A model generated the notes under the pieces. That model saw only the letters and a program-made list of their open reading frames with translations, was not told where the DNA came from and did no database searches. A stretch of DNA of 37,224 nt from a virus (lineage: Duplodnaviria > Heunggongvirae > Uroviricota > Caudoviricetes), in the IMG/VR virus record IMGVR_UViG_3300029473_000203; one strand, given 5' to 3'. Made by a program: the position numbers and the translations under genes. The stretch's first letter is position 1. Every line of letters begins with the position of its first letter. Of the stretch, positions 1 to 37,224 are shown one piece after another.

Positions 1-1053
1 TTACGGGGTAATGCCAACCGCTGCCGCCACTTTGTCGCCACTTGGCAGCGTTGCCAGAGGATTGAAACGGAGCGCCGTTTCCAGATGATCTGGTGCCAGA
101 TGTGCGTAACGCATAGTCATTTTTATATCGTGGTGTCCGAGAATTTTTTGTAAGGCGAGAATGTTTCCACCCGACATCATGAAGTGCGCCGCAAACGTAT
201 GGCGCAGAACGTGTGTGAGTTGACCGCGAGGGAGCACGATAGACGTTTTTTCCATCACGGATAAAAATTGAAAATAGTAGTCTGTAAAGAAATTGAACCC
301 ATCAAGCGCCATGATCTCTTCGTAAAGCTCTTTACTGATAGGGATGCTTCTGTTTTTCTTCCCCTTCGTTCTGACAAAGGTAATTCGGTATTTGGTCACC
401 TGTGAGCGGGTAAGATTTACGGCTTCACGCCAGCGTGCGCCTGTGCTTAAGCATATCTTAACTACCAGTGCCAGAATTGGGTCCTGACGTTTGCAATCAG
501 CCAGCAATTCAACAATCTGCTCATGGGTAAGCCATGCCATCTCTTTTTCTGCGATGGTGAATTTTCGCATGTTCTCCAGTGGGTTCGGATACGACCATTC
601 GCCCAGACGGGATAGTTCGCTAAAAACACTACTTAGATAGCTTTGCTCCAAGTTAATGGTGACCGGGCTTGCTCCTTTCTTCCATTTCTCGCTGAAGTAG
701 ATCTCGCCTGTCAGGCGTTTATCTCGATAGTGGGCAAACATTTTAGAGGTGAGATCGGTTGCAAGAGGATTACCCAGAGCGTCAACCATCAACAGCAATT
801 TGTCATAGACATGCTGCCCAGCTGTCAGAGATTTACCATGTAGTTTGAACCATAGCTCAACTACGTCTTTCAGTGTTCGACGATCCACTGATTCACCCAG
901 CCAGGGCTTTGCTTCGGTTTCTTCCATCGTGTGGCGCTCAAAAGCCAGAGCTTCGCCTTTGGTGGCGAATTGTTTACGCACACGACGTCCACTACGTCCG
1001 GCGGGGTAACATTCGCAAAGCCATTTCCCTGTGGTGAGTTTTCGTACTGCCAT
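1..1053 (-). CDS. int: Phage tyrosine integrase (P2/186 Int-like)
   Basis: ORF 1..1209 minus; C-terminal region has tyrosine-recombinase motifs (ARWREA, HVLRHTFAAHF, MRYAHL); start placed at ATG giving MAVRKLTTGKW, matching the P2 Int N-terminus from memory; stop codon is at window positions 1-3. Confidence 0.9.
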   Translation of the reverse strand: MAVRKLTTGKWLCECYPAGRSGRRVRKQFATKGEALAFERHTMEETEAKPWLGESVDRRTLKDVVELWFKLHGKSLTAGQHVYDKLLLMVDALGNPLATDLTSKMFAHYRDKRLTGEIYFSEKWKKGASPVTINLEQSYLSSVFSELSRLGEWSYPNPLENMRKFTIAEKEMAWLTHEQIVELLADCKRQDPILALVVKICLSTGARWREAVNLTRSQVTKYRITFVRTKGKKNRSIPISKELYEEIMALDGFNFFTDYYFQFLSVMEKTSIVLPRGQLTHVLRHTFAAHFMMSGGNILALQKILGHHDIKMTMRYAHLAPDHLETALRFNPLATLPSGDKVAAAVGITP

Positions 1054-1241
1054 AAAAAATGCCCTCCAGTAGAGAGCATTTTTACTGTATGTATAACCAG
1101 TGTCAATGTATGAAATCCTACGACCATACATCTCACTGAAGCCATCATGAAGTTGGCTATTCTTTTTGCTATGTGAGCATGTAACTTTTGCGGTTAACCT
1201 GCGGCTCATTTTTATTTTAGACGCAGATATAAAAGCAAAAG

Positions 1242-1433
1242 TTATCGTGAGTTTTTAGTACAGATTTTTTTGGATTTACTAATAGTTCCATCATTGCAAA
1301 CGAATTTGCCATCTGAGGTACAGTGAGAAACACCTCCCTTTTTCCCTGAGCAGGGATAATTTCTAGCATAGGTAGTTAGTGGGTTTAATAACAAAGAACA
1401 TGACAAAACCACAAAAAATACCTTACCAAGCAT
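1242..1433 (-). CDS. Small secreted cysteine-containing protein (63 aa, hypothetical moron)
   Basis: Strong RBS GGGAGGA 5 nt upstream of ATG; N-terminal signal-peptide-like segment [23 protein letters not shown]; putative mature part has 4 Cys and is Lys-rich; AT-rich; sits between cI and int on the same strand. Confidence 0.45.
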
Positions 1434-1448
1434 AGTTTCCTCCCGGTA

Positions 1449-2018
1449 CTATTTAACATACTTGACTGTTAAACTTATAATTTTACCAATTATTTCAATG
1501 TCTTCTATCTTGCATTCGAAGGCTCTGTTTCCACCCTCGACGAAGATTCTTCCACCGGGTAAACGAGTAATGTCACGGATCGTTATTTCGCCATCAATAC
1601 TTATTACCCATTTACCATCACGTATATCATCAAATTCTTTATCACAAATAAATTCAGAATTGTTATCTGTGATGACAAAAGGTTTTTTAAAAGTAGAGGG
1701 TAGAAATCCCTTATCAAAAATATAAAAACCGTCTTTCTGCAATGCTCCATCAGACAATAAATATTTTTCTACTTCTATAGTATTTGTATTTGCTGATGCT
1801 TGCTTTGAACCATGCCCTGTTGTTAGCCAATTAAGCGAGGTGCCCGTTTCAAGGGCGCACTGGATTACCCAATCTGCTGGAAAAATATCACGCATATAGC
1901 GCGTTGCCATGGTGCTCTTAGAAACACCTAAATGATCACAGAGAGCCTGACGGGTACCGAACCCATATGCTTCAACTAAACGTTCTATGGCTTTCTTACC
2001 GCCGCTATTGAAATCCAC
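1449..2018 (-). CDS. cI: CI-type immunity repressor (phage 186 CI-like)
   Basis: Translation resembles 186 CI as I recall it (AYGF ... CALETG ... LxWLxTG ... KLPG ... GG..FEC); start uncertain: GTG at 2018 after GGAGG, ORF track extends to GTG at 2105. Confidence 0.8.
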   Translation of the reverse strand: MDFNSGGKKAIERLVEAYGFGTRQALCDHLGVSKSTMATRYMRDIFPADWVIQCALETGTSLNWLTTGHGSKQASANTNTIEVEKYLLSDGALQKDGFYIFDKGFLPSTFKKPFVITDNNSEFICDKEFDDIRDGKWVISIDGEITIRDITRLPGGRIFVEGGNRAFECKIEDIEIIGKIISLTVKYVK

Positions 2019-2163
2019 AAGTCCTCCAAAGAAATCCAAAATTCGTTGACAGATTCCAAAAGCGATCTTAAAGTTGAACCAGAAGTGTTCTTTTGGAGCC
2101 TTCACTACTAATCACGACAAACAACGGCTCGCCACAAGCCATACCTAGAAGGAATGTTGCCTT

Positions 2164-2367
2164 ATGACACCTAACATTTCAATTACTCTGAATACACCAC
2201 ATGTCACAATCGAACGTTATAGCGAACTGACTGGCCTTTCTATTGATACGATTAACGACATGTTGGCTGATGGCCGACTACCTCGTCATCGTCTTCGTAA
2301 AGACAAAAAACGTGAAAAGGTAATGATTAACCTGGCTGCTCTGACTGTTGATGCTTTGTCTGCTTAA
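2164..2367 (+). CDS. Apl/Cox-like small DNA-binding excisionase/regulator
   Basis: 67-aa basic ORF divergent from cI in the position of 186 apl / P2 cox; assignment by position and size only. Confidence 0.6.
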
Positions 2368-2431
2368 TAGACGTCTATTTTCGCAATAAGACGCTGAGTT
2401 CGATTTTGCGATAAGTTCGGAGTTGAAAACC

Positions 2432-2941
2432 ATGTTTGATTACCAAGTTTCCAAACATCCACATTTTGATGAAGCCTGTCGTGCATTTGCACTGCGCCAC
2501 AATCTGGTGCAACTGGCAGAACGTGCAGGCATGAATGTGCAGATTCTGCGGAACAAGCTGAACCCAGCTCAGCCTCATTTATTAACCGCACCAGAAATCT
2601 GGCTGCTTACCGATCTGACTGAAGATTCAACGCTGGTAGATGGTTTTCTGGCACAGATTCATTGTCTGCCATGTGTACCGATTAATGAGGTGGCAAAAGA
2701 GAAACTGCCACATTACGTCATGAGTGCAACCGCAGAGATCGGGCGTGTTGCTGCAGGTGCGGTGTCTGGCGATGTAAAAACCTGTGCCGGTCGTCGTGAT
2801 GCTATCAGCAGCATTAACTCTGTAACACGACTGATGGCGCTGGCTGCTGTTTCATTGCAGGCCCGTTTACAGGCTAATCCTGCGATGGCGAGTGCAGTTG
2901 ATACCGTGACTGGCCTCGGTGCTTCATTCGGTTTGCTGTGA
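2432..2941 (+). CDS. cII: CII-like lysogeny establishment regulator (phage 186 CII-like)
   Basis: Translation [19 protein letters not shown]...[26 protein letters not shown] closely resembles 186 CII as I recall it; ATG at 2432 inside ORF track 2423..2941. Confidence 0.75.
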
Positions 2942-2948
2942 GGTGCTT

Positions 2949-3245
2949 ATGCTGACGAAAGAACCATCATTTGCATCGCTGCTGGTAAAACAAAGCCCGG
3001 CAATGCACTACGGTCACGGCTGGATCACGGGTGAGGATGGAAAACGCTGGCATCCATGTCATTCACAAGATGAATTGCTGTCTGAATTGACCACGAGGAA
3101 ACGGAGAAAGTCCAAATGTATGCGGCAGAAAGTGAAGTGGTTTATCAGTTTCGTTACAGAGGGGAGAGTTATTCAGTACCTGAAGATGATTTGCTCTGTT
3201 GCTATCCGTCATTGTCGGGAGATGGCAGTTACTTTTTCACGTTAA
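2949..3245 (+). CDS. Hypothetical early-region protein
   Basis: ORF with ATG at 2949 after GAGGTG; 3' part overlaps ORF 3116..3340 in another frame, so the true extent is uncertain. Confidence 0.35.
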   Translation: MLTKEPSFASLLVKQSPAMHYGHGWITGEDGKRWHPCHSQDELLSELTTRKRRKSKCMRQKVKWFISFVTEGRVIQYLKMICSVAIRHCREMAVTFSR

Positions 3246-3340
3246 AGGATGGGACGTTTTTACGGGGAGAGCAGGTTAAAGAGACGATACGAAAAAATGT
3301 ATCTCCTCTTGAGCGTTACCGTAAGAACAAAGAACGATAG
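3116..3340 (+). CDS. Hypothetical early-region protein (74 aa)
   Basis: ATG at 3116 preceded by GGAG about 8 nt upstream; no recognisable motif. Confidence 0.45.
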   Translation: MYAAESEVVYQFRYRGESYSVPEDDLLCCYPSLSGDGSYFFTLKDGTFLRGEQVKETIRKNVSPLERYRKNKER

Positions 3341-3362
3341 CTGCGTTTGGGGAATATGAAGT

Positions 3363-3704
3363 ATGGCAATTAATGGCGCTGCAGCAACTGTTCCATTAAG
3401 CCCAGGTGAACGCCTGAATGGACTTAATCATATTGCGGAATTAAGGGCGAAAGTATTTGGCCTGAATATTGAGTCAGAGCTTGAGCGGTTTATTAAAGAT
3501 ATACGTGATCCACGGGATGTTAATTATGAACGAAATAAACGAGCACTGGCTGCTATATTCTTTATAGCAAAAATTCCAGCTGAACGTCATAGCATCAGCA
3601 TTAATGAGCTGACCACTGACGAAAAGCGGGAGTTGATTAAAGTAATGAATCATCTTCGTGCAGTGGTGAGCTTATTTCCCAGACGGCTAGCCATGCCGAA
3701 TTAA
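3363..3704 (+). CDS. Hypothetical early-region protein (113 aa)
   Basis: Clean ORF in the early operon; no recognisable motif. Confidence 0.5.
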   Translation: MAINGAAATVPLSPGERLNGLNHIAELRAKVFGLNIESELERFIKDIRDPRDVNYERNKRALAAIFFIAKIPAERHSISINELTTDEKRELIKVMNHLRAVVSLFPRRLAMPN

Positions 3705-4232: not shown

Positions 4233-5086
4233 GCACCATCCTGAAATGGGCGGGAAATAAAACCGCCATTATGTCCGAACTGAAAAAGCATCTTCCTGCT
4301 GGCCCGCGACTGGTTGAACCTTTCGCGGGTTCCTGTGCAGTGATGATGGAGACGGAGTACCCCAGCTATCTTGTTGCGGATATTAATCCTGATTTAATCA
4401 ACCTCTATAAAAAGGTTGCTGCTGATTGTGAATCGTTTATATCTCGCGCCAGAGTTTTATTTGAGATCGCAAACAGGGGGGTGGCTTATTACAACATAAG
4501 GCAGGAGTTTAATTACTCAACTGAAATTACTGATTTCATGAAAGCGGTATATTTCCTGTATCTCAATCGTCACGGTTACCGTGGTTTATGTCGCTATAAC
4601 AAGAGCGGGCATTTCAACATTCCCTACGGTAATTATAAAAATCCGTATTTCCCTGAAAAAGAAATTCGCGCATTTGCAGAAAAAGCCCAGCGAGCAACGT
4701 TTATCTGCGCCAGCTTTGATGAAACGCTGGCGATGTTGAAGGCGGGGGATGTGGTGTATTGCGATCCGCCGTATGACGGTACGTTTTCCGGCTATCACAC
4801 TGATGGTTTCACTGAAGATGACCAGTATCACCTGGCATCCGTTCTTGAACATCGGTCATCAGAAGGACATCCGGTCATTGTTTCTAACAGTGATACATCC
4901 CTGATCCGTTCGCTGTATCGCAATTTTACTCACCACTATATCAAGGTAAAACGCAGCATCGGTGTGGCAGCTGGCGAGGGTAAATCAGCAACAGAAATCA
5001 TTGCTGTTTCCGGGCCGCGCTGCTGGGTGGGATTTGATTATTCGCGTGGCGTGGATAGTTCTGCCGTGTACGGAGTACGTGCATGA
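4229..5086 (+). CDS. dam: DNA adenine methyltransferase (Dam family)
   Basis: N-terminal LKWAGNK...PFAGS (SAM-binding) and DPPY motif (CDPPYDG); start moved to ATG 4229 (MSTILKWAG) within ORF track 4169..5086; stop overlaps the repA start. Confidence 0.85.
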
Positions 5087-7497
5087 GCCATGCCGATATG
5101 AACAACTGCTGCGGCTTTAACGAGGCTGCCGCAGCGTTCTCATGGAACAGCCCGAAAAAGGCCATTAACCCTTATCTGGACCCGGCGGAAGTTGCGCCGG
5201 TTTCTGCGCTTTCAAACCTGATCGCTCTGTACGCTGCCGATAACGAGCAGGAACACCTGCGCCGCGAGGCACTGAGTGATCAGGTCTGGGAGCGTTATTT
5301 CTTTAATGAATCCCGTGATCCTGTCCAGCGCGAAATGGAGCAGGATAAGCTCATTAGTCGGGCAAAGCTGGCGCATGAGCAGCAGCGTTTTAATCCAGAT
5401 ATGGTCATTCTGGCGGACGTCAATGCCCAGCCTTCCCATATCAGCAAGCCGCTGATGCAACGTATTGAATACTTCAGCAGCTTGGGCAGGCCAAAGGCTT
5501 ATTCCCGCTATTTGCGTGAGACGATTAAGCCATGTTTGGAGCGACTGGAGCATGTACGCGACAGCCAGCTATCTGCATCTTTTCGTTTTATGGCAAGCCA
5601 TGTAGGGCTGGACGGCCTGCTGATTCTGCCTGAAATGAGTCAGGATCAGGTGAAACGCCTGTCTACTCTTGTCGCTGCGCATATGAGCATGTGTCTTGAT
5701 GCCGCTTGTGGTGATTTGTACGCCACCGATGATGTTAAGCCAGAAGAAATCCGCAAGACATGGGAAAAGGTGGCAGCAGAAACCCTGCGACTGGATGTTA
5801 TCCCGCCTGCGTTTGAGCAACTTCGTCGGAAAAGAAACCGCCGTAAACCCGTGCCCTATGAACTCATTCCGGGTTCGCTGGCGCGTATGTTGTGCGCCGA
5901 TTGGTGGTACCGGAAATTATGGAAGATGCGTTGCGAATGGCGGGAAGAGCAGTTGCGTGCTGTTTGCCTGGTCAGCAAAAAAGCATCTCCCTATGTCAGC
6001 TATGAAGCCGTGATGCATAAACGTGAGCAGCGCCGTAAGTCGCTGGAGTTTTTCCGTTCTCATGAACTGGTGAACGAAGACGGCGACACGCTGGACATGG
6101 AGGATGTGGTAAACGCCAGCAGCAGCAACCCGGCGCATCGCCGCAATGAGATGATGGCCTGTGTTAAAGGTCTGGAGCTTATCGCAGAAATGCGCAGTGA
6201 CTGTGCCGTTTTCTACACTATCACCTGTCCGTCGCGTTTCCATTCCACGCTCAATAACGGCAGACCAAACCCGACCTGGACAAACGCGACGGTAAGACAA
6301 AGCAGCGATTATCTGGTCGGCATGTTTGCTGCATTTCGTAAGGCTATGCACAAAGCCGGGTTGCGCTGGTATGGCGTGCGGGTGGCTGAACCGCATCATG
6401 ACGGCACAGTTCACTGGCACCTGTTGTGTTTCATGCGCAAAAAAGACCGCCGCGCCATTACTGCATTGTTGCGTAAGTTTGCCATCCGTGAAGACCGCGA
6501 GGAGCTGGGCAATAACACGGGGCCACGCTTTAAGTCTGAGCTGATAAACCCGCGCAAAGGTACGCCAACAAGCTACATCGCGAAATACATCAGTAAGAAC
6601 ATTGACGGGCGTGGTCTGGCTGGCGAGATCAGCAAGGAAACGGGTAAATCCCTGCGTGATAACGCTGAATACGTTAATGCCTGGGCGTCTCTGCATCGTG
6701 TTCAGCAATTCCGCTTCTTTGGCATTCCGGGGCGTCAGGCTTACCGTGAACTGCGATTGCTGGCTGGTCAGGCGGCAAGGCAACAGGGGGACAAAAAAGC
6801 AGGTGCGCCGGTACTGGATAACCCGCGCCTTGATGCAATCCTGGCTGCTGCTGATGCTGGTTGTTTTGCCACCTACATCATGAAGCAGGGCGGCGTACTG
6901 GTTCCCCGCAAATATCACCTCATCAGAACTGCTTATGAAATCAACGAAGAGCCGACCGCCTATGGCGATCACGGTATTCGTATTTATGGCATCTGGTCAC
7001 CCATTGCAGAGGGCAAGATCTGCACTCATGCGGTGAAGTGGAAAATGGTTCGTAAGGCCGTTGACGTTCAGGAGGCGGCAGCCGACCAGGGCGCTTGCGC
7101 CCCTTGGACTCGTGGCAATAACTGTCCCCTTGCTGAAAATTTGAACCAACAGGAGAAAGATAAATCAGCTGATGGGGACCCCAGAACGGACATTACCAGC
7201 ATGGATGACAAGGAGTTGCACGATTACCTGCACAGTATGAGCAAAAAAGAGCGCCGGGAACTGGCAGCAAGGTTACGCCTGGTGAAACCGAAACGGCGTA
7301 AAGACTACAAACAGCGAATTACAGACCATCAGCGACTGCAGCTCGTGTATGAGCTGAAGTCCAGAGGATTTGATGGCAGCGAGAAAGAGGTCGATTTACT
7401 CCTTCGCGGAGGCAGTATTCCGTCAGGAGCAGGCCTGCGTATCTTCTATCGGAACCAGCATTTGCAGGAAGATGATCAGTGGCGGAACCTGTATTAA
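5083..7497 (+). CDS. Replication initiation endonuclease (P2 gpA / 186 RepA-like, HUH rolling-circle)
   Basis: 804-aa ORF with HUH-like motif VHWHLLCF and tyrosine pair YIAKYISK; position after the early operon as in P2/186. Confidence 0.9.
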
Positions 7498-8176: not shown

Positions 8177-8860
8177 CTATGATTGAAGAGCAATCTTTCT
8201 CAACGTATCAAATACAATTTTTGTAAAATTATTTTCATTTTTAACGTCAATGTAAGCAAGAGCGTTATTAGTAATTTTAAGTTTACCAGAATACTCTAAT
8301 GAATTAACGGAGCAAACAAGTTTGTCAATTCTTATTTTCTTCCCCTCTAATTCTTCTTTATAATATTTTCTAAGGTCACTGCTGCCAATTATTTGCATTT
8401 TAGCTGTAGCGTAATCAGCGACTCTAACTCTAGAAATATCCAGCTGTGTTAGATTTATATTCACATTTGAAGATATTTCGTTGAGCCAATCCATCGGATT
8501 TATATCAATCTCTTCTAGGCTAACGCCTAAGCCAAGATTTCTGACTAAGGCCTGTGAAAACGGTTTTAACGTTCGCGGAGGGTTAGTAAGTTGCATTATA
8601 GGAAGAGTATCTAAAGATACACTGAAATTAGTAGTGCGGTATTCGACTCTTTCTACGATAGTTTCGCTTCCGTCAAAATTAGAAACTTGATCGTGATAAA
8701 TAATACGCTCAACAAAGCGTCCATGTGCAGAATCATGACGTATTTTATCAAAAATAAACCCTTTCCCCTTATCCTCGGTAAAAGAATCAAGAGAAAGACG
8801 TTTAACAGCTTTTTCAAATTCAAGCCGTATGTTTAATTTGAGCCACTTAACCTTCTTCAT
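8177..8860 (-). CDS. Cargo gene 3 of three-gene operon (227 aa, unknown function)
   Basis: Start overlaps the end of gene 2 by 14 nt; AT-rich by eye; no recognisable motif. Confidence 0.8.
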   Translation of the reverse strand: MKKVKWLKLNIRLEFEKAVKRLSLDSFTEDKGKGFIFDKIRHDSAHGRFVERIIYHDQVSNFDGSETIVERVEYRTTNFSVSLDTLPIMQLTNPPRTLKPFSQALVRNLGLGVSLEEIDINPMDWLNEISSNVNINLTQLDISRVRVADYATAKMQIIGSSDLRKYYKEELEGKKIRIDKLVCSVNSLEYSGKLKITNNALAYIDVKNENNFTKIVFDTLRKIALQS

Positions 8861-9926
8861 GTTCGTTTACCTCTGGTCCTATTATTATATTATAGGCATT
8901 TTCAGCGGCTGACTCAATTAATTCACTAATATGTCTTTTCTCTTGTGCCGTTGCCGCACGAATTGTCACATTGAATCCGTCTTCTTTTTGATTATTTATC
9001 CCTTTAATTTGATAGGCAAAGTCACAGCAATTTTCAGAGTCTTTGAAAAATGCTTCAACGTTAATTCTGTCACCAACTCCACTTGTCGGTTTTGAAGACC
9101 ATGCGATACGGCCTATATAATAACCTTTCTCGTGTAGTTGAGAAAATATAGGCGAACTATTAACACCTTCACCATTCAAAACAGCTTTCTTGACGAATCC
9201 GGTATCGATTGTTTCTTCTTTGTCTTCATCTTCACTTGCGTCAATACTGCGATTTAATTCTACTTTCGTTACATCATCAGTCTCATAACCATGTAGTCCA
9301 TTCATTAACTCTTGAAAGAACTGGCTTCGCAATGTAGGGTCAGTGATTGCCATTAAAGAAATTTCAAAACGTTCAATAGGCTCAGATTTGATTTTAGACA
9401 GCTCGTTTTGCAGACCCTCAATAACTTTTTTTGCCTCAGGATTCTGTGGCATACGTACTTCAACCTTGTCAACACCAGGGCGAAGTTCTATTATGACATT
9501 CCGTTTATCTATTTGACGCAGAGCGGTTTTAGATAAGTCTATTTCTTCATAGTTATATTCTACTGTCAGAGAACCATCTTTTTTCGCTACGATATTCAAG
9601 CTTTGCCCTTTACTGGGTGAACATGTTTTTTTCAATGCTTCAGCTGCGCTCTTTAATTCGGCCTGATTTGTTGTGGTCTGAAAACTCACACTGGTAATGC
9701 TTTCTCTTGGATCATATGTTTTGACCATCTTTTTTATATGCTCTAATTCATTAAAACCATGGGGGAGTTTTGATATTTCCTCGATAAGTATTTCCTTGTC
9801 GAGTTCTGGTGATAAAAAAACACCTCTATTTAGCAATAATTCATGTAATTTTGCAGGGGTTATTCTTTTATGATGCAAAGCATCATAAATATTCTTGTCA
9901 GTCGCAAAGTATAATTTTTTAGCCAT
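8847..9926 (-). CDS. Cargo gene 2 of three-gene operon (359 aa, unknown function)
   Basis: ATG overlaps gene 1 stop (TAATG on minus strand); acidic, Lys/Glu-rich; no Walker motif. Confidence 0.8.
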   Translation of the reverse strand: MAKKLYFATDKNIYDALHHKRITPAKLHELLLNRGVFLSPELDKEILIEEISKLPHGFNELEHIKKMVKTYDPRESITSVSFQTTTNQAELKSAAEALKKTCSPSKGQSLNIVAKKDGSLTVEYNYEEIDLSKTALRQIDKRNVIIELRPGVDKVEVRMPQNPEAKKVIEGLQNELSKIKSEPIERFEISLMAITDPTLRSQFFQELMNGLHGYETDDVTKVELNRSIDASEDEDKEETIDTGFVKKAVLNGEGVNSSPIFSQLHEKGYYIGRIAWSSKPTSGVGDRINVEAFFKDSENCCDFAYQIKGINNQKEDGFNVTIRAATAQEKRHISELIESAAENAYNIIIGPEVNEHEEG

Positions 9927-10927
9927 TATCGTTGCTCCATCCCAATTTTTTCAAGATTATATTCAACTACAACTTTGTCTGTCTTTTCGAAGTCAAATTT
10001 AAGAAAAAGTCTTTCATCCTCACCTAACAGCCAGTCTGTACTGTATTTCTTTTTAGCTTTTTCAAAATGATGAATAGCATTTTCATTTGGATGGATATGA
10101 CAATGACGTAATAAAATTGGTTTGCCTTCAGTGAGTATCTGATAAGTTGATAGCATGTCAAAAAAGTACACGAATTCATCTAATGAATCACCGGGTTGAT
10201 TGTAATAAACAACATACCCTTCTGGGATATCTTTTTTAAGCCAGCTAAAAGCCTCATGTTTAATTATGATGTATGGCGATGTTAATAATTCAATTGTCGC
10301 AGGTGTTGTTTGGTTGATGGGGTGTTTTATTCTTGTTAAAGAAAGATCTGGGTAATAGTAAGTAAACTTATCAGGCTGTGGAAGTTTTCCAGAGCCTATT
10401 AATTTGGTTATGTCAGAGGATATATTTATTAAATCAGATATTTTATAGGGGTCAAGTAAGTGTAGTTTTATGTTTGGAGGACAATTTATAACGGAATGAT
10501 CTAATTTTTTTGTAATATTTTCATAGAAATCTTTATCATATAGATTATCATGATTATACAAAAATAACAAACCTCTTACATTATAACCTAAAGAATCATC
10601 ATGAACGTATTTCAATCGCCACTCTTTACTTACATTCGCACACTCGGTAGCTAAAGCAAGTGAGGTTAAGGCACCTTCGACCATTTTTTTACCAATAGAT
10701 CCCTCCGCATAGCTCTTTAGATCTGTATTGAGATAGACCATTTCCTCTTCATAAGGGTCTGTGTAGAAAAATACAACATCACTTGGATGGGTTTTCTTGG
10801 AATGTACCTCTTGGCAACATTCCCAATTCATGTCCGCTCTAGCGGCGCGATCCCATTTGAATACAGAGAAAATATCATCAGAAATTTTACCTGCGACTCG
10901 TTGTATAGCCGAAGTTTCTCCACCCAT
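9926..10927 (-). CDS. Cargo gene 1 of three-gene operon (333 aa, unknown function; possible nuclease-like motifs)
   Basis: ATG at 10927 with AAGGAG RBS; tentative PD-(D/E)xK-like pattern (VVFFYTD ... MVYLNTDLK) and a His/Cys-rich patch RHCHIHPNENAIHH; no Walker A. Confidence 0.8.
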   Translation of the reverse strand: MGGETSAIQRVAGKISDDIFSVFKWDRAARADMNWECCQEVHSKKTHPSDVVFFYTDPYEEEMVYLNTDLKSYAEGSIGKKMVEGALTSLALATECANVSKEWRLKYVHDDSLGYNVRGLLFLYNHDNLYDKDFYENITKKLDHSVINCPPNIKLHLLDPYKISDLINISSDITKLIGSGKLPQPDKFTYYYPDLSLTRIKHPINQTTPATIELLTSPYIIIKHEAFSWLKKDIPEGYVVYYNQPGDSLDEFVYFFDMLSTYQILTEGKPILLRHCHIHPNENAIHHFEKAKKKYSTDWLLGEDERLFLKFDFEKTDKVVVEYNLEKIGMEQR

Positions 10928-11164: not shown

Positions 11165-11261
11165 CGCGCGCATTGAGTTAAAATTTCTTGAGTTGATGAA
11201 AATAAGATGTATTTTAATTTGGCACAGAAAAACCTAATAACTCACAAGGATAATGATAATA

Positions 11262-12188
11262 ATGCAAATAGTTTCCATCATAAATTATAAAGGTGGCGTT
11301 GGTAAAACAACAGTTACGTCTAATTTAGCCGCTGAATTAGCATTCCGAGGAAAGAATGTTTTAGTTCTGGATATGGATGCTCAGGCAAGCCTGACATTTT
11401 CGTTTCTAACTCCCGATTATTGGGATGAACATCTTAAAAATGAAAGGACCATTAAAAACTGGTTTGATTGTATTAGTCAGGGAGAGCAAACAATGCCTCT
11501 TTCGACTCTAAGAGTACGACCTGAACCTGTTAATAGTAGATTTGATAGAAAAGGTGGATGTTTGGATTTAATATCTTCCCACCTCGGGTTGATAAATGTT
11601 GATCTTGAGCTTGCGACTCTTCTAGGAGGGGCTAGCCCCAGTCAAACTCAAAAAAAATATCTTAAAGTTCATGGTAAACTTAGAGAGGAACTTCAAATAC
11701 TAGCTGACGAAATGAATTATGATGTTGTTTTAATTGATTGTCCACCTAACTTTAATATCGTAACAAAAAATGCTTTGATTGCATCAGATAAGATTTTGAT
11801 ACCAGCAAAACCTGATTATTTGTCAACGCTAGGTATTGATTATTTAAAAAGAAGCGTAGATTCTCTAGTTACAGACTATAATTTCTATGCCGATAAAGAT
11901 GAAGATTATGAAAGGGTATCTCCTGAGATTCTCGGAGTAGTTTTTACTATGATTCAAATTCATTCAGAACAACCTATTGCCGCGCAAAGACAGTATATTG
12001 CGCAGACAAAACGTCTAGGTGTTCCCGTATTTGATGCTATTTTTAGGGAGAATAAAACTATCTTTGCTGATGCCCCTAGAGATGGAATTCCTGTAGCATT
12101 AATTGGCTACTCGCATTCAACTCACTCTTCTATTGTAGGAGAGATTGAGGATTTTGTTGATGAATTCCTTCAAAAGATTGGAGAATAA
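11262..12188 (+). CDS. ParA/MinD-family P-loop ATPase
   Basis: Deviant Walker A KGGVGKTT near the N-terminus, VLVLDMDAQASLT, VVLIDCPPN; AT-rich; possible start at 11253 or 11262. Confidence 0.8.
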   Translation: MQIVSIINYKGGVGKTTVTSNLAAELAFRGKNVLVLDMDAQASLTFSFLTPDYWDEHLKNERTIKNWFDCISQGEQTMPLSTLRVRPEPVNSRFDRKGGCLDLISSHLGLINVDLELATLLGGASPSQTQKKYLKVHGKLREELQILADEMNYDVVLIDCPPNFNIVTKNALIASDKILIPAKPDYLSTLGIDYLKRSVDSLVTDYNFYADKDEDYERVSPEILGVVFTMIQIHSEQPIAAQRQYIAQTKRLGVPVFDAIFRENKTIFADAPRDGIPVALIGYSHSTHSSIVGEIEDFVDEFLQKIGE

Positions 12189-12190
12189 AA

Positions 12191-12586
12191 GTGAGTAAAG
12201 CTAAAACTTTAACTGTGCTATTTCGTGAATTACAAGATGCAGTTCTTGAACTCAATGAAGGGGAATTGGAAAAAATTATTTCGGGCGAGTATCAATTCGT
12301 CCTTAAGGTAGTTAAAAAACGTAATAGTACTGGTGCAAAGATAAGTTCAGTAGATAATTTTAGCTATAACGAATTGCTTGTTTTACTTAACCAGTGTGAG
12401 TCAAGAGAACAAGGTTGCGAGCTTTTGTCGCGTGAGCTTAAGACTAAATCTGAGTTTGAAAAATTCGCTCGTCATGTCGAGGTCGCTGTAATGAAAAGCG
12501 ATAAACTCGAGAAAATTAGAGATAATATTATTGAGTCGACAGTAGGTGCTAAACTCCGCTCTGATGCTATTCAGAATAAAAAGTAA
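12191..12586 (+). CDS. Small partner protein (131 aa) of the ParA-like ATPase, unknown function
   Basis: GTG start 2 nt after the ParA-like stop, with GGAGA upstream; charged, helical-looking sequence. Confidence 0.6.
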   Translation: MSKAKTLTVLFRELQDAVLELNEGELEKIISGEYQFVLKVVKKRNSTGAKISSVDNFSYNELLVLLNQCESREQGCELLSRELKTKSEFEKFARHVEVAVMKSDKLEKIRDNIIESTVGAKLRSDAIQNKK

Positions 12587-23853: not shown

Positions 23854-25265
23854 GCACAAAATTTTATACCCTGCTGACGGATATTGGCGCGGCGAAACTT
23901 GCCAGCGCCGCCGCGCTCGGTGTGCCGCTAAAAATTACCCATATGGCGGTGGGCGATGGCGGTGGAGTATTGCCAACGCCGGACGCAAAGCAGACGGCAC
24001 TGGTAAATGAGAAACGCCGGGCTGCGCTGAATATGCTTTATATCGACCCGCAGAACAGCAGCCAGATTATTGCCGAACAGGTGATCCCTGAAAACGAGGG
24101 CGGTTGGTGGATACGTGAAGTGGGCTTGTTTGATGAGTCCGGGGCATTGATTGCCGTGGGCAACTGCCCGGAAAGCTATAAGCCGCAACTGGCTGAAGGT
24201 AGCGGGCGCACTCAGACCGTGCGCATGGTGCTGATTACCAGCAGCACGGACAATATCACCCTGAAAATCGACCCTGCTGTAGTGCTGGCAACCCGCAAGT
24301 ATGTGGATGACAAGGCACTGGAGCTGAAAGTGTACGCGGATGATCAGATGGCAAAACATCTTGCCGCACCGGACCCGCATTCACAGTACGCGCCAAAAGC
24401 CAGCCCGACATTTACCGGAACCCCCAAAGCGCCAACGCCAGCGGCGGGGAATAATACCACGCAGGTTGCGACCACTGCGTTTGTACAGGCGGCACTGACG
24501 GCCCTTATTAATGGTGCGCCAGCCACGCTGGACACGCTGAAAGAAATAGCCGCAGCCATTAACAATGATCCGAATTTCAGTACCACCATTAACAATGCGC
24601 TGGCACTAAAAGCACCGTTGTCGAGTCCGGCACTCACCGGAACGCCAACAGCCCCCACGGCGGCGCAGTCGGTCAACAATACACAGATTGCCACTACGGC
24701 TTTTGTGAAATCGGCGATTGCAGGAATGGTGGGTTCTGCACCTGCTGCACTGGATACACTGAACGAACTGGCGGCGGCACTGGGGAATGATCCGAACTTT
24801 GCCACGACAATGCTTAATGCGCTGGCAGGTAAACAACCGCTGGACAATACGCTTACCAATTTGAGTGGAAAGGATGTAGCTGGTCTTCTCACATACCTTG
24901 GTTTAGGAGATGCGGCAAAAAAAAATGTTGGCACTGGTTCCGGACAGATTCCGGACATGTCTTCATTTGGTAATCAGCGAGCCGATTCGGGGTATCAATA
25001 CCTGCCAGGCGGGTTAATTCTTCAATGGGCAATAGCCATAACGAGAACATCCCCAGAAACAGTATCATTCCCGATTGCGTTTCCAACCAGGGCGCTATGT
25101 GTTGTTGCAACAGACCAGAGTGTTGGGGGTACAGGTCAAGGTTTTGCGTTAACCGCCCAGGATTTTACGAGAACTAATTTCCAGCTACGCGCTTATCAGA
25201 CAGGAACCTACGCTGAATCATCCATCGGCGCTGGCGGGTTTAACTATTTTGCTGTGGGGTATTAA
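23850..25265 (+). CDS. H: Tail fibre protein (P2 gpH-like) with constant N-terminus and invertible C-terminal cassette
   Basis: N-terminus MSTKFYTLLTDIGAAKLA...MAVGDGGG is typical of P2-family H; contains two tandem repeats of about 73 aa; the C-terminus lies inside the invertible segment. Confidence 0.85.
   Translation: MSTKFYTLLTDIGAAKLASAAALGVPLKITHMAVGDGGGVLPTPDAKQTALVNEKRRAALNMLYIDPQNSSQIIAEQVIPENEGGWWIREVGLFDESGALIAVGNCPESYKPQLAEGSGRTQTVRMVLITSSTDNITLKIDPAVVLATRKYVDDKALELKVYADDQMAKHLAAPDPHSQYAPKASPTFTGTPKAPTPAAGNNTTQVATTAFVQAALTALINGAPATLDTLKEIAAAINNDPNFSTTINNALALKAPLSSPALTGTPTAPTAAQSVNNTQIATTAFVKSAIAGMVGSAPAALDTLNELAAALGNDPNFATTMLNALAGKQPLDNTLTNLSGKDVAGLLTYLGLGDAAKKNVGTGSGQIPDMSSFGNQRADSGYQYLPGGLILQWAIAITRTSPETVSFPIAFPTRALCVVATDQSVGGTGQGFALTAQDFTRTNFQLRAYQTGTYAESSIGAGGFNYFAVGY
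24402..24842 (+). repeat. Tandem repeat (2 x about 220 nt / 73 aa) inside the tail fibre gene
   Basis: Repeat 1 SPTFTGTPKAPT...NNTTQVATTAFV...APATLDTLKEIAAAINNDPNFSTT; repeat 2 SPALTGTPTAPT...NNTQIATTAFV...APAALDTLNELAAALGNDPNFATT. Confidence 0.6.
24886..24911. repeat. Invertase crossover site (gix/cix-like), left, inside gene H
   Basis: TTCTCACATACC-TT-GGTTTAGGAGAT resembles the Mu gix site (TTCCTGTAAACC-GA-GGTTTTGGATAA, from memory) and is inverted relative to the site at 26433-26458. Confidence 0.6.
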
Positions 25266-25268
25266 TAA

Positions 25269-25700
25269 ATGGCTTATTTTTATTCAGCATTAAATAACGC
25301 TTTCTACCCTGATGAGCTCAGAGATGTTTATGAAGCGAGTAGAAACTGGCCTGACGATCTCATAGCCGTCTCAGATGAGACATTCACTGAATATTCGGGG
25401 ATGCCACCAGAGGGTAAAACTCGTGGAGCTACTGAGGATGGAATGCCGGCATGGGTAGACATTCCACCTTTAAGCCATGAGGAGGAAATCGCAGCAGCTG
25501 AAGCTGAAAAACAGTATCGTATCGATCAGGCTAATGAGTATATAAACAGCAAGCAGTGGCCGGGTAAAGCTGCGCTGGGGCGACTTACAGACGACGAGAA
25601 GGCCCAGTATAACGAGTGGCTGGATTATCTCGATGCGCTGGAATCTGTGGACATATCCAGCGCACCAGATATCAACTGGCCTGAGTCGCCGGAGGAGTAG
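25269..25700 (+). CDS. Tail fibre assembly chaperone (P2 gpG / Tfa-like)
   Basis: N-terminus [16 protein letters not shown] typical of the Tfa family; directly after H. Confidence 0.8.
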
Positions 25701-26091
25701 GCCAGTCCGGGTCTGCTGTATCAACTCGCATCAGCAGCACCCGGTATTTTTTCCATTCGGCTAATGAAACAGTTTCTTCTTCCGTCGCGATCCCCGCATC
25801 AACGGCGTCCTGCCGCCATTCTATTTCAGAGTCAGCTGAAGCACGCAGTCGCGATTTTTCGGCTTCTGCCAACGCAATAATTTCCTCTTCAGTTGGTTCG
25901 GGAATATCTATCCATTCAGGTAAACCATCAGAATTAGGAGCGCGTAATTTTCCGTTAGGTGATTCTCCGGCAAACTCAACGAATACGGAATAGTCTACTT
26001 CAACGGCATCGTCAGGCCAGCTACCTGCATTTTCATAAATACTTTTTAGCTCATCAGCGTAGAACGCATTTTCTTTTGCAGAATAAAACAT
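25672..26091 (-). CDS. Alternative tail fibre assembly chaperone (tfa') of the inverted orientation
   Basis: N-terminus [14 protein letters not shown] parallels the plus-strand Tfa; its 3' end overlaps the tfa 3' end convergently (25672-25700). Confidence 0.75.
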
Positions 26092-26096
26092 ATTAA

Positions 26097-26444
26097 TCAC
26101 CATCCAATCGCGAAAACTCTAAAGCCACCGTAGCCAGCACATGTAATCTGAGTTCTTGTTACCGTCGTATAGTATGATCGGCCCACCGCTAAGCTATATG
26201 CGGCTGTAGAACTCAAATCAACTGCCCCAGTTGATACATCACTAAATAACGGAATCATGCACTCATTTGGGAATGCAATAGGGAAATTCGCAGTTACTGG
26301 TGTCACATAATCAGTTGTAGCAGCACCAAACCACTGCAATATGATCACCCGTTCTTTCCCGGCGACCATTGCCGGGATAGTCATATAGCCTGTAGAGCCG
26401 GTCACACACACCGCTGCGCCTAATTTTGCTCCCTCTCCCAAACC
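26097..26444 (-). other. Alternative tail-fibre C-terminal cassette (start-less; fused to H constant part after inversion)
   Basis: Minus-strand frame ...NVGLGEGAKLGAAV... ends GFRVFAIGW, compared with the current H end GFNYFAVGY; the reading frame is continuous with H across the crossover core. Confidence 0.65.
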
Positions 26445-34369: not shown

Positions 34370-34455
34370 CGCTGCCGCCATTTTGTCGCCATCGTTAAAA
34401 AACAGTGTTTCTAACATCATGATTTTAAACAGCTTAAATTTCAGGCAACAAAAAA

Positions 34456-34492
34456 CCCATCAACCTTGAACCGAAATGGCGGGGTTGATGGG
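34456..34492 (-). terminator. Hairpin plus T-tract on the minus strand (candidate ybjL terminator / prophage-host junction region)
   Basis: CCCATCAACC ... GGTTGATGGG inverted repeat, followed on the minus strand by TTTTTTG; the loop is long (about 17 nt), so the structure is uncertain. Confidence 0.35.
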
Positions 34493-34604
34493 CTCCACAA
34501 AATGGGGACATCAAAGAAAAGCAGTGGCACTAATTAAGACTGATGCCCTGCGGAAAAGTTCTGCGGTTGTGCAAAAAAATTTCATTTTCAGGGCAACTTC
34601 AGTT

Positions 34605-36290
34605 TTATCCTAATCCTGGCCATACCATGACGATGATTGTCCCTGCCAGCGTCAGCAGGACGTTGGCGATTGCATAGGTGCCCGCATAGCCCAGCGCCGG
34701 GATGTTACTGCGAGCTGTATCACTGATGATCTCCATTGCCGGCGCGCAGGTACGTGCGCCCATCATTGCGCCGAACAACAGCGCGCGGTTCATTCGCAAT
34801 ACATAAGCACCGAACAAGAAACAGATAACCACGGGCACCAGACTGACAATCAATCCGGCAATCAACATCTGACCGCCAATCGCGCCCAAGCCGTTATTAA
34901 TACCGCTACCGGCGCTCAGACCAACGCCTGCCATAAACACCATCAAGCCGAACTCTTTCACCATGCTTAATGCACCCTGCGGAATGTAACCGAAGGTCGG
35001 GTGGTTAGCACGCATAAAGCCCAGCATAATTCCGGCGAATAACAACCCGGCAGCGTTCCCCATGCCGAAACTGAATGTGCTGAACTGGAAGGTGATCATC
35101 CCGATCATCAGCCCAATAACAAAGAAGGCGCAAAATGCCAGCAGGTCAGTGACCTGGCTGTGAATCGAGATAAAGCCGATGCGATCGGCGATGGTTTTTA
35201 CGCGACGGGCATCACCGCTGACTTGTAAAACGTCACCTTTGTTAAGCACGACGTTGTCATCTATCGGCATCTCAATCTGGCTACGAATGACGCGGTTAAG
35301 GAAGCAACCGTGATCGGTCAACTTCAGTTGTGCGAGACGTTTACCTACAGCGTTATGGTTTTTAACGACCACTTCTTCAGTGACGATACGCATGTCGAGA
35401 AGGTCACGATCGAAAACTTCTTTACCGTTACGGAAGCTGGGATCGAGTCGGGCATGGGCGTCGGGATAGCCTACCAACGCTATTTCATCGCCCATTTGTA
35501 GCACGGCATCACCGTCTGGATTTGCCAGAATCCCGTTACGTCGAATACGTTCAATGTAGCAGCCGGTTTGTCGATAAATACCCAGTTCACGCAGATTTTT
35601 GCCGTCGGTCCAGGCCACCAGCTCCGGGCCGACGCGATAGGCGCGGATCACCGGTAAATAAACCTTACGGTTGGCATCAGTGTCCAGGCCACGTTCGCGG
35701 GCGATTTGCTGGGCGCTGGTCTGTAAGTCCTGATGCTGCAATTTCGGCAAGTAACGCGCACCAACAATCAAACTCACCAGACCGATTAAATAGGTTAAGG
35801 CATACCCGAGGCTCAGATTATCCAGTGCCAGTGAGAGCTGCCTGCTTTCCATGCCGGAATGACGCAGTGTATCGCCAGCACCGACCAGAACCGGTGTCGA
35901 CGTCATAGAGCCTGCTAACATACCGGCCGTCAGGCCAATATCCCAGCCAAACAGCTTACCTAACCCTAAGGCGATCACCAGCGCACTGCCAACCATCACC
36001 AGTGCTAACATTAGGTAATTTTTCCCATCGCGAAAAAAAATGGAAAAAAAGTTCGGTCCGGCTTCAACCCCAACACAGAAAATAAACAGCATAAAGCCAA
36101 GATTAAGCGCATCGGTGTTAATGCTGAAATGTTGTTGGCCTAATAACAGCGATACGACTAAAACGCCAATGGAATTACCCAGTTGGATCGAACCAAGTCG
36201 TAACTTTCCGAGACATAGCCCAAGCGCGAGGACCACAAATAATAACAGAATGTAATTCCCATTTAACAATTCGGCGACGTTTATATTCAC
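34605..36290 (-). CDS. ybjL: Putative transporter YbjL (host gene)
   Basis: 561-aa polytopic membrane protein with a central soluble region; matches E. coli YbjL by size and remembered sequence. Confidence 0.85.
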
Positions 36291-36559
36291 GGAGGCTAAC
36301 TTCTTGTTTACTAGTAAGCTGTTGAAAGAAATGGTAATTTACGATAATGTTTTTTACCAGAATTCAGGGCGCAGATTCATTCAGCGCACCTAAACGATAG
36401 TAAAGTAACAATATATTTTACTAGTGTAATCACATTAGGTATCAACGGCTATATGAATTGCGTTGGCCTATATTAGCATGGAATGCGAAGCGGCTTTATC
36501 TTACTGAACGCCACACTGGCGAAAAATGTGTTCGATAGACGCAGTGTCAGGAGGAACGA

Positions 36560-36937
36560 GTGAAACATAAACAACGTTGGGCGGGGGCAATCTGCTGTTT
36601 TGTCCTCTTCATTGTGGTGTGCCTTTTTCTGGCGACGCACATGAAAGGCGCTTTTCGGGCTGCCGGGCATCCTGAAATCGGCTTGCTATTTTTCATTCTT
36701 CCTGGAGCAGTCGCCAGCTTCTTTTCACAGCGTAGAGAAGTCCTGAAACCTCTGTTTGGCGCAATGCTGGCGGCACCCTGTTCGATGCTCATTATGCGGC
36801 TGTTTTTTTCACCGACGCGCTCATTCTGGCAAGAGCTGGCATGGTTATTAAGTGCGGTGTTCTGGTGTGCGCTGGGGGCACTGTGTTTCTTATTTATCAG
36901 TAGTTTGTTTAAACCACAGCACAGAAAAAATCAGTAA
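36560..36937 (+). CDS. ybjM: Inner membrane protein YbjM (host gene)
   Basis: 125-aa hydrophobic protein; GTG start; located between ybjL and grxA as in E. coli K-12. Confidence 0.8.
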   Translation: MKHKQRWAGAICCFVLFIVVCLFLATHMKGAFRAAGHPEIGLLFFILPGAVASFFSQRREVLKPLFGAMLAAPCSMLIMRLFFSPTRSFWQELAWLLSAVFWCALGALCFLFISSLFKPQHRKNQ

Positions 36938-36957
36938 AGCCCTCAACGCGAGGGCTT
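36937..36957. terminator. Hairpin between convergent ybjM and grxA (candidate bidirectional terminator)
   Basis: AAGCCCTC / loop AACGC / GAGGGCTT. Confidence 0.5.
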
Positions 36958-36966
36958 GTCAGACGA

Positions 36967-37224
36967 TCAGGCGTCCAGATTTTCTTTCACCCATGCAGCA
37001 AAATCGGTATAGCCGCCGATATGTTGCTGATCGACAAAAATCTGCGGCACGGTTTCTACGGGTTTACCTGCCTTTTGTTGTAGATCTTCTTTAGTGATCC
37101 CTTCCGCACGAATATCTACATAGTGATACTGAAAATCATCGTGTTCATTGCTCAATTTCTCAGCCAGATCTTTTGCACGCACACAGTAAGGGCAACCCGG
37201 ACGACCAAAAATAACGGTTTGCAT
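36967..37224 (-). CDS. grxA: Glutaredoxin 1 (host gene)
   Basis: 85 aa with CPYC active site (MQTVIFGRPGCPYCVRAKDL...); matches E. coli GrxA almost exactly as I recall it. Confidence 0.9.
   Translation of the reverse strand: MQTVIFGRPGCPYCVRAKDLAEKLSNEHDDFQYHYVDIRAEGITKEDLQQKAGKPVETVPQIFVDQQHIGGYTDFAAWVKENLDA

Follow-up and report, generated by a model that had tools for sequence, protein, structure and literature searches.

What is the short open reading frame (ORF) that lies between the immunity repressor gene cI and the integrase gene int of this prophage, and what might it do for the lysogen? A sequence-only reading of the window (the whole stretch of 37,224 nucleotides that was analyzed, a Caudoviricetes record) had pointed to a small, secreted, Cys-containing product encoded within the lysogenic cI-int transcription unit, and had suggested lysogenic conversion or exclusion as its role. 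The features relevant to this question are as follows.

1..1053, minus strand: int, a P2-family tyrosine integrase gene (Pfam Int_N, E 3e-32; Phage_integrase, E 5e-22)
1054..1084, minus strand: terminator-like hairpin (A5-stem-U6), which ends at the int start codon and is part of the conserved int module
1142..1241, minus strand: cargo-specific 3' untranslated region of the ydcA-like gene, with a long hairpin (approximately 1182..1244) without a U-tract
1242..1433, minus strand: the ydcA-like gene, with an ATG start, 63 codons and a TAA stop (ORF listing, profile matches, dN/dS and family alignment)
1245..1364, minus strand: codons of the predicted mature 40-aa peptide
1365..1433, minus strand: codons of the predicted signal peptide (aa 1-23)
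1438..1444, minus strand: Shine-Dalgarno sequence GGGAGGA of the ydcA-like gene, read from the sequence, inside the 15-nt gap after the cI stop
1449..2018, minus strand: cI, a 186-type immunity repressor gene (Pfam Phage_CI_repr, E 3e-31; Phage_CI_C, E 5e-29)
2046..2074, plus strand: putative pR-like sigma-70 promoter TTGACA-17-TAAAGT (consensus scan, 10/12 positions), facing the apl/cox-like gene
2164..2367, plus strand: apl/cox-like excisionase-repressor gene (weak Pfam HTH_17 and Phage_Cox matches; synteny with 186 apl)
2423..2941, plus strand: cII, 186-type (Pfam Phage_CP76, E 4e-42)

The ORF is exactly where it had been placed, on the same strand as cI and int, 15 nt after the cI stop codon (1451..1449) and 188 nt before the int ATG (1053). 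Translation of 1242..1433 (minus strand) gives a protein of 63 residues. The ribosome-binding site, described as strong, holds up as well: the GGAGG core of the GGGAGGA at 1444..1438 is spaced 5 nt from the ATG (1433), and the start region is unstructured (folding dG -4.5 kcal/mol, z 0.05). For cI, the RefSeq start is the GTG at 2018, while the open frame reaches up to 2105. This start is taken from the annotation of a 99.8%-identical RefSeq locus, where int is annotated as 'phage integrase' and adjoins rcdA. Both cI (38% GC) and the ydcA-like ORF (35%) are AT-rich compared to the whole prophage (51%). The arrangement of cI, the apl/cox-like gene (the first gene of the lytic operon) and cII agrees with that of phage 186, and so does the position of the candidate pR-like promoter.

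Does the frame matter as a protein? Between the window and the allele of the E. coli BL21(DE3) prophage (93.6% identical) there are 12 differences, of which 11 are synonymous and one is a conservative non-synonymous change (R24K). The resulting dN/dS of 0.02, compared with 0.05 for int and 0.15 for cI, indicates strong purifying selection on the gene. The 86 close copies that we fetched represent 11 nucleotide alleles and keep the frame intact in all but strain 730V1, in which it is cut by IS5; one further allele has an altered C-terminus. It might be argued that translation of the frame is needed only in cis, for instance as a spacer for the tuning of int expression, or that it is a chance ORF, since it lies between cI and int and structured RNA precedes int. 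However, its amino acids are conserved over Alpha-, Beta- and Gammaproteobacteria, where the family members are mostly far from any int gene, and the dN/dS value implies that the peptide sequence itself is selected. Both versions of this argument are thus effectively refuted.

Homology searches of the BLASTP/HHpred type, which had been proposed as a check, assign the ORF to a named family. For NCBIfam NF007463 (PRK10040.1-2) the window protein scores 115.8 bits (curated cut-off 93, E 5e-34), with the entire model covered (positions 1-58 of 58). A second match is to PHROG 6000 ('unknown function', E 2e-34), and close homologs of the protein have precomputed matches to Pfam PF27300, the name of which is 'YdcA'. 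A search of our local Pfam-A copy gave no significant match for the ORF because the PF27300 model is newer than that copy; the GULLO2-like hit in Pfam-A (E 0.075) is noise, and the NCBIfam hit lpg1681_fam (E 0.11) was dismissed as compositional. A fold search against viral predicted structures (BFVD) yielded nothing below E 0.36. The gene is already annotated in RefSeq, either as 'hypothetical protein' (WP_000900883.1) or as 'YdcA family protein'. Collectively, the matches to PF27300, NF007463 and PHROG 6000 confirm the ORF as a real, prophage-borne gene of the known YdcA family, which is functionally uncharacterized.

The reference member of the family is the chromosomal paralog of E. coli K-12, ydcA (b1419), located between rydC/cybB and hokB. 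Its 57-aa product is a periplasmic protein with a signal sequence and without an assigned function (PMC11340327). K-12 YdcA has the same architecture (a signal peptide followed by a core of about 35 aa) and the same domain, PCSGxKGG(V/I)SHC...F(V/I)CxDG(T/S)xSxSKKxC, with the same four Cys, and the mature parts of the two proteins are about 70% identical. What differs is the setting: K-12 ydcA adjoins cybB/rydC, whereas the prophage copy is found in the lysogenic cI-int unit and has a different signal peptide.

The N-terminus, which had been judged signal-peptide-like, shows the canonical features: an n-region MLGK, a hydrophobic core (residues 5-16), Pro at position -6 and a T-Y-A cleavage motif followed by R. 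In an alignment of 27-28 homologs the N-terminal 20 or so residues vary freely yet remain hydrophobic, and Ala23 (position -1) is invariant. So are, in 27-28 sequences including K-12 YdcA, P27, C28, S29, K32, G33, G34, C38, F44, C46, D48, G49, S52, S54, K55 and C58. A variable hydrophobic N-terminus, an invariant Ala at -1 and a frozen core make up the pattern of a cleaved Sec signal followed by a folded domain. An alternative reading as a lipoprotein (L-S-C12) was rejected: this Cys is only 11 residues from the start and is missing in many homologs, and it is the AxA site at 23 that is conserved instead. The mature part, described earlier as Lys-rich with four Cys, is a 40-mer of 4.29 kDa with a pI of 9.7, nine K/R against two D/E, and indeed four Cys; a fifth one, C12, lies inside the signal peptide. 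In 223 family proteins with 225 domains, 216 domains contain four Cys; the medians are +4 for the net charge and residue 25 for the start of the domain. A moderately confident AlphaFold2 model of the window protein (mean pLDDT 77, and 85-89 over residues 31-50) consists of the signal helix and a small beta-hairpin core. The sequence features thus support a Sec-exported, strongly basic mini-protein with four Cys and a predicted signal peptide.

A small, cationic, disulfide-rich peptide could also be a secreted antimicrobial, bacteriocin-like or addiction peptide that harms non-lysogens. We consider this very unlikely. Having a Sec signal only, the protein would get no further than the periplasm, and genes for immunity, export or processing are not found next to it. 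In addition, most E. coli have a chromosomal paralog.

We then asked what occupies the interval between cI and int elsewhere. In 186 the two genes overlap by one base, in Salmonella phage RE-2010 they are 3 nt apart, and in P2 a gene-free gap of 115 nt separates C from int; neither P2 nor 186 thus has a gene at this position, in agreement with the sequence-only reading. Comparison of the int-cI regions of other relatives reveals that the order cI, ydcA-like gene, int recurs. It is found in prophages of Yersinia alsatica, Y. aldovae and Y. nurmii, the cI and int products of which are only about 37% and 48% identical, respectively, to those of the window. In the Haemophilus phages HP2 and S2 a 60-aa homolog, unannotated in the RefSeq record, begins at the cI stop (TAATG overlap) and is followed by a secreted 254-aa ORF and then int. 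In Buttiauxella a cI gene is followed by a homolog at a distance of about 450 nt. Three further elements show how the content of the interval changes.

E. coli JA0072: ydcA-like gene kept beside cI, plus a KAP NTPase gene (PADLOC PDC-S20, E 2e-171) before int
Phage vB_EcoM-813R9, which shares int and the rcdA attachment site: PD-Lambda-1 (E 3e-120), without a ydcA-like gene
Klebsiella phage 4LV2017: an unrelated 349-aa ORF

In JA0072 the PDC-S20 cassette replaces the segment 1142..1264. Together, these comparisons support the view of the cI-int interval as a variable cargo slot, in which sister prophages with the same int carry known or candidate anti-phage genes (PD-Lambda-1 and PDC-S20). A 2026 survey reported the int-primase interval as a minor defense hotspot of P2-like prophages, with no mention of YdcA (PMC13586616). 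The ydcA-like gene resembles the defense cargo of P2-like hotspots (Rousset et al. 2022, PMC9122126; PMC13586616) in occupying a variable slot of a P2-like prophage. It differs from that cargo in staying beside cI even when a cassette is inserted downstream and in having no PADLOC match (0 families at E <= 0.01 for the window protein). The window also carries a 3HP system in the classic hotspot.

Outside prophages, none of the deposited enterobacterial phage genomes has the ydcA-like gene. Phage-borne homologs were found in 20 Moraxella, three Acinetobacter, three Haemophilus and one Pseudomonas phage records. The Moraxella and Acinetobacter phage homologs reside inside the head-tail module, and the copies in Moraxella, Acinetobacter and Pseudomonas phages occupy moron positions other than cI-int. 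With its phage copies at differing positions, the gene behaves as a mobile moron.

Is the gene expressed in the lysogen? In the annotation of 186, cI, int and orf69 are transcribed from pL (maintenance) and from the CII-activated pE (establishment). A consensus scan of the minus strand yielded neither promoter-like nor terminator-like sites in the stretch from cI to the ydcA-like ORF. Together with the 15-nt gap this bears out the proposed position inside the lysogenic cI-int unit, and by analogy with 186 we infer that the gene is co-transcribed with cI. Lysogens therefore probably make the YdcA-like protein. The lysogenic promoter pL itself was not identified within the window.

The RNA downstream of the gene is a different matter. 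The 188-nt spacer before int folds into strong structure (z -5.5). One hairpin directly follows the ydcA-like stop (dG -20.5 kcal/mol, z -4.4). The other, at 1084..1054 (dG -17.5 kcal/mol, z -6.0; 0/200 shuffles fold as well), includes in its 3' arm the int Shine-Dalgarno sequence GGAGGG (1067..1062), and its run of U directly adjoins the int ATG. This second hairpin is absent from the consensus-scan output and was established by folding. Homology with phages carrying other cargo extends up to 1111-1141, which assigns the hairpin at 1084..1054 to the conserved int module. Its form resembles that of an intrinsic terminator, which would in addition mask the translation of int. If it does terminate transcription, a cI-ydcA transcript would be the main lysogenic message and int expression would be attenuated.

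To see how far the gene extends beyond this prophage, we searched 5426 complete E. coli genomes with a 251-nt query spanning the ORF. Matches were found in 648 genomes. In 632 of them (about 12% of complete E. coli genomes) the identity is at least 90% and the match is the prophage gene; in the other 16 it is 60-80% and the match is chromosomal ydcA. The prophage gene is carried, among others, by BL21(DE3), ATCC 8739 and HS, and in BL21(DE3) it is intact even though the prophage is decayed and defective. Two 100%-identical E. coli matches labeled 'plasmid' turned out to be chromosome fragments carrying rcdA-ybjJ. On a larger scale, a profile search of 1.84 billion representatives identified 462 clusters with E <1e-3. 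A word-indexed search gave 932 clusters at the 90% identity level; each of the 120 listed has a length of 46-77 aa and consists of the single domain. Most members of the YdcA family are chromosomal or occur in mixed, non-phage contexts. The genes flanking family members in 78 species loci (145 ORFs) include no recurrent partner: the commonest neighbors, cytochrome b561 and HTH regulators, account for 5/145 each, and the cytochrome b561 neighbors reflect Escherichia synteny.

Another explanation is that the gene is a host-fitness moron that adds to or backs up chromosomal ydcA, for example under envelope or acid/organic-acid stress, and has no effect on other phages. The close similarity of the mature K-12 and prophage proteins fits with such a role, and so do the mostly non-phage contexts of the family and the retention of the gene in a defective prophage. 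There are also experimental hints: an E. coli W delta-ydcA mutant was reported to be sensitive to 3-hydroxypropionate, and ydcA to be regulated by YdcI and induced by acid (PMC7642389). However, the published phenotypes are indirect and come without a mechanism, phage genomes of four other genera carry the family, and the slot itself holds defense genes in sister prophages. We regard a pure host-fitness role as possible but less likely than not.

Clues to the mode of action come from the longer family members, in which the domain always follows the signal peptide. Fusions to nucleases are rare, with four among the 14 long proteins of the 150 best representatives: two to Endonuclease_NS, one to a staphylococcal-nuclease (SNase) fold and one to a PLD-type nuclease fold. 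The SNase fusion is located in a P2-like phage contig, beside tail genes; the contexts of the PLD and Endonuclease_NS fusions are uninformative, the contigs being short or unrelated. In other members the domain is joined to a C-terminal fragment of VasL (type VI secretion) or, at a sub-threshold level (E 0.003-0.006), to a PBCV basic-adaptor-like Cys module, and some members contain two or three tandem repeats of the YdcA domain. That three unrelated nuclease folds share one small, basic module at the N-terminus speaks for a role of this module in binding or targeting. Its target might be nucleic acid, another polyanion or the envelope, and the same domain arrangements argue against an enzyme or a specific inhibitor.

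A further clue comes from structure. A search of PDB sequences with the family profile (hmmsearch) detected chain AN of 7MUC/7MUD with E 1.3e-4, both lobes being aligned. This chain is Dis2 (Lpg0823), an outer-membrane cap subunit of the Dot/Icm type IVB secretion system of Legionella pneumophila. Foldseek returned the same chain as the top match of the AlphaFold2 model (probability 0.84, 38% identity over 37 columns), with a weak E-value of 0.22, and hhalign of the family against Dis2 gave a probability of 93.8%. No other PDB entry gave a meaningful match, and Dis2 ranks first by fold as well as by profile. It shares the Cys-rich lobe (CCSKMGGINYC..GRLVCNNGFYS) and an AxA-type signal, and it is likewise periplasmic and disulfide-pinned. 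The profile evidence supports homology between the YdcA family and the Dis2 lobes, although the fold E-value is weak. There are also differences. Dis2 is a stoichiometric part of the secretion machine with two lobes and five disulfides (PMC8486379), and it is less basic, whereas the prophage protein has a single lobe and four Cys.

The Dis2 relationship might mean that the prophage protein is an adaptor or structural subunit that docks on an outer-membrane-associated machine and acts by modulating it. A secretion system, a pilus, a receptor complex or the lysis or entry apparatus of the phage itself are possible targets. The fusion to a VasL fragment points in the same direction, as does the UniRef name of the exact window protein, 'Conjugal transfer protein'. 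We found no visible basis for that name, including any type IV secretion (T4SS) context on plasmids, and rejected it. T4SS genes are absent from the prophage, from the neighbors in the 78 species loci and from the Acinetobacter plasmid p3ABAYE, and more generally no secretion-system genes lie beside family members in these loci or on the plasmid. Given also the two lobes and five disulfides of Dis2 against one lobe here, we consider an adaptor of this kind improbable.

A more specific version of the binding hypothesis is that the YdcA domain is a periplasmic DNA- or polyanion-binding module, and that the prophage copy traps or blocks foreign DNA crossing the periplasm. Co-transcribed with the repressor gene like rexAB of lambda, it would then be a novel type of factor for superinfection exclusion or against mobile elements. 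In the same reading, the domain would target secreted nucleases to DNA, and Dis2 would be a substrate- or envelope-contacting element. To our knowledge, Dis2 has no known DNA binding. Taken jointly, this set of propositions seems doubtful to us.

Our preferred reading is broader. The ORF would be a YdcA-family cargo gene (moron) of the cI-int slot. As in 186, the maintenance promoter would drive its transcription together with cI in lysogens, and a CII-dependent promoter would do so at establishment. Most lysogenic transcripts may stop at the hairpin before int, leaving cI-ydcA as the main lysogenic mRNA. The peptide would be exported by Sec, cleaved after Ala23 and oxidized in the periplasm to form two disulfides. 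The mature product would have no catalytic site; small and cationic, it would act close to the outer membrane as a binding module for a polyanion, which may be DNA in transit or anionic components of the envelope, for example. The lysogen would gain exclusion of incoming phage or foreign DNA, or another envelope-level conversion. We estimate the probability of this reading as a whole, gene and mechanism together, at about 0.5.

Its parts differ in strength. It is, in our judgment, highly probable that the ORF is a cargo gene expressed in the lysogen and that its product is a cationic YdcA-family protein of 40 aa, exported by Sec to the periplasm and bearing disulfide bonds. The mode of action is another matter: a non-catalytic polyanion or outer-membrane-proximal binder that brings about exclusion or conversion is the most likely mode, and we propose it only tentatively. 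The idea of a binding module is based on the four Cys in 216/225 domains, the net charge of +4, the fusions with nucleases, VasL and the PBCV module, the tandem repeats and the homology to Dis2. The idea of exclusion or conversion, also put forward in the sequence-only reading, is plausible by location only. It draws on the presence of PD-Lambda-1 or PDC-S20 in the same slot of sister prophages, the report of a minor hotspot in the int-primase interval (PMC13586616), the intact gene in the decayed BL21(DE3) prophage and the other moron positions taken by the Moraxella, Acinetobacter and Pseudomonas phage copies. Counting against exclusion are the missing PADLOC match and the mostly chromosomal or mixed settings of the family, together with the chromosomal ydcA of E. 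coli; these settings would fit a general housekeeping or stress role just as well. The rarity of the nuclease fusions, the less basic nature of Dis2 and the moderate confidence of the AlphaFold2 model count against the binding module.

The arrangement has well-known parallels. In the cI-rexA-rexB operon of phage lambda, rex is co-transcribed with the immunity repressor gene. Envelope conversion or exclusion genes include lambda bor and lom, cor of phi80 and N15, and llp of T5, and the products of bor, cor and llp are small exported envelope proteins. Lambda cI-rexAB and Bor/Cor/Llp follow the same logic, that of an accessory gene expressed in the lysogen. The likeness ends there, as the YdcA-like protein has no sequence or fold relation to the products of rex, bor, lom, cor or llp, and is neither a lipoprotein nor membrane-spanning.

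On present evidence the system is not of a new kind, and the gene already has annotations in public genomes. Several observations nevertheless appear not to have been described in the literature searched: the recurrent placement after cI, the unannotated HP2 copy, the Dis2 homology and the nuclease fusions. That literature contained no paper linking the YdcA family to Dis2 or linking YdcA to prophages. For the family, the Dis2 homology means that a protein called a 'species-specific' secretion-system subunit gains a wide family, and the nuclease fusions offer a concrete hypothesis, periplasmic binding of DNA or another polyanion. For E. coli, about one in eight complete genomes, including those of BL21(DE3), ATCC 8739 and HS, carries directly behind a prophage repressor a gene that is more constrained than the repressor and yet belongs to a conserved orphan family. 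Located in the lysogenic operon, at a site taken by anti-phage genes in sister prophages, the gene provides a clean, testable handle on this family. Should the protein indeed exclude phages or other DNA on entry, it would represent an immunity factor of very small size, encoded by a single gene, acting at the level of the envelope and widespread in clinical and laboratory E. coli.

The window was aligned with E. coli MS 115-1. There the related prophage is flanked by rcdA and ybjL, which shows that the right end of the window (about 34400..37224) is host chromosome (the ybjL, ybjM, grxA side). At the left end the first position of the window is exactly the int stop codon; therefore, attL lies outside. 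The two prophages, otherwise 97% identical, differ in the tail-fibre region (window 24911..26423) and in the cargo of the classic P2 hotspot. Since in MS 115-1 a recombinase gene adjoins duplicated tail-fibre assembly genes, the former difference suggests an invertible host-range segment.

The P2 hotspot, bounded by the replication gene (5083..7497) on one side and the portal gene on the other, carries the following in the window:

8177..10927 (minus), with 11253..12586 (plus): three ORFs matching Hp3, Hp2 and Hp1 (PADLOC models), trailed by a ParA-like ATPase (AAA_31) and a 131-aa ORF

The three matches are full-length (E-values 5e-144, 1e-245 and 9e-234 for Hp3, Hp2 and Hp1, respectively). 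Judging from the model names, we take these ORFs to make up ‘3HP’, an anti-phage system with three genes (Rousset et al.).

The interval between cI and int, occupied in the window by the ydcA-like gene, was compared with that of other phages and prophages, and a hairpin preceding int was mapped:

Haemophilus phage HP2 (L001, NC_003315), 2920..3102: 60-aa YdcA-family ORF, its start overlapping the cI stop (TAATG)
E. coli JA0072 (L169), 2142..3473: PDC-S20 (KAP NTPase) between cI and int
Phage vB_EcoM-813R9 (L175), 5636..7312: PD-Lambda-1 between cI and int
Window, 1054..1084, minus strand: terminator-like A5-stem-U6 hairpin (dG -17.5 kcal/mol, z -6.0)

Neither the HP2 record nor that of S2 annotates this 60-aa ORF. 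After it come orf1(S) (254 aa, with a signal-peptide-like N-terminus) and then int. The rcdA-site prophage of E. coli BL21(DE3) (NC_012892.2, 872-877 kb) is decayed, with truncated cII and replication genes; int, the ydcA-like gene and cI are intact in it. The family also includes longer members of 100-150 aa (P0058, P0060, P0062 and P0098), a subfamily with an extra C-terminal module, CxCxxxxxC(T/A)GP(R/K)GGxYC..G.K.Y, found for example in Herbaspirillum. This module matches the Pfam ‘PBCV-specific basic adaptor domain’ below threshold (E-values 0.003-0.006).

The hairpin was not picked up by a consensus terminator scan of the window. Its 3' arm contains the int Shine-Dalgarno site and its U-run abuts the int ATG. 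On the lysogenic transcript the hairpin may dampen int expression at two levels, transcription and translation. In phages having other cargo, the hairpin is kept together with the int module.

JA0072 and vB_EcoM-813R9 share both int and the rcdA attachment site with the window. With PDC-S20 or PD-Lambda-1 sitting there in these sister prophages, the cI-int junction is a slot for defence cargo in this lineage.
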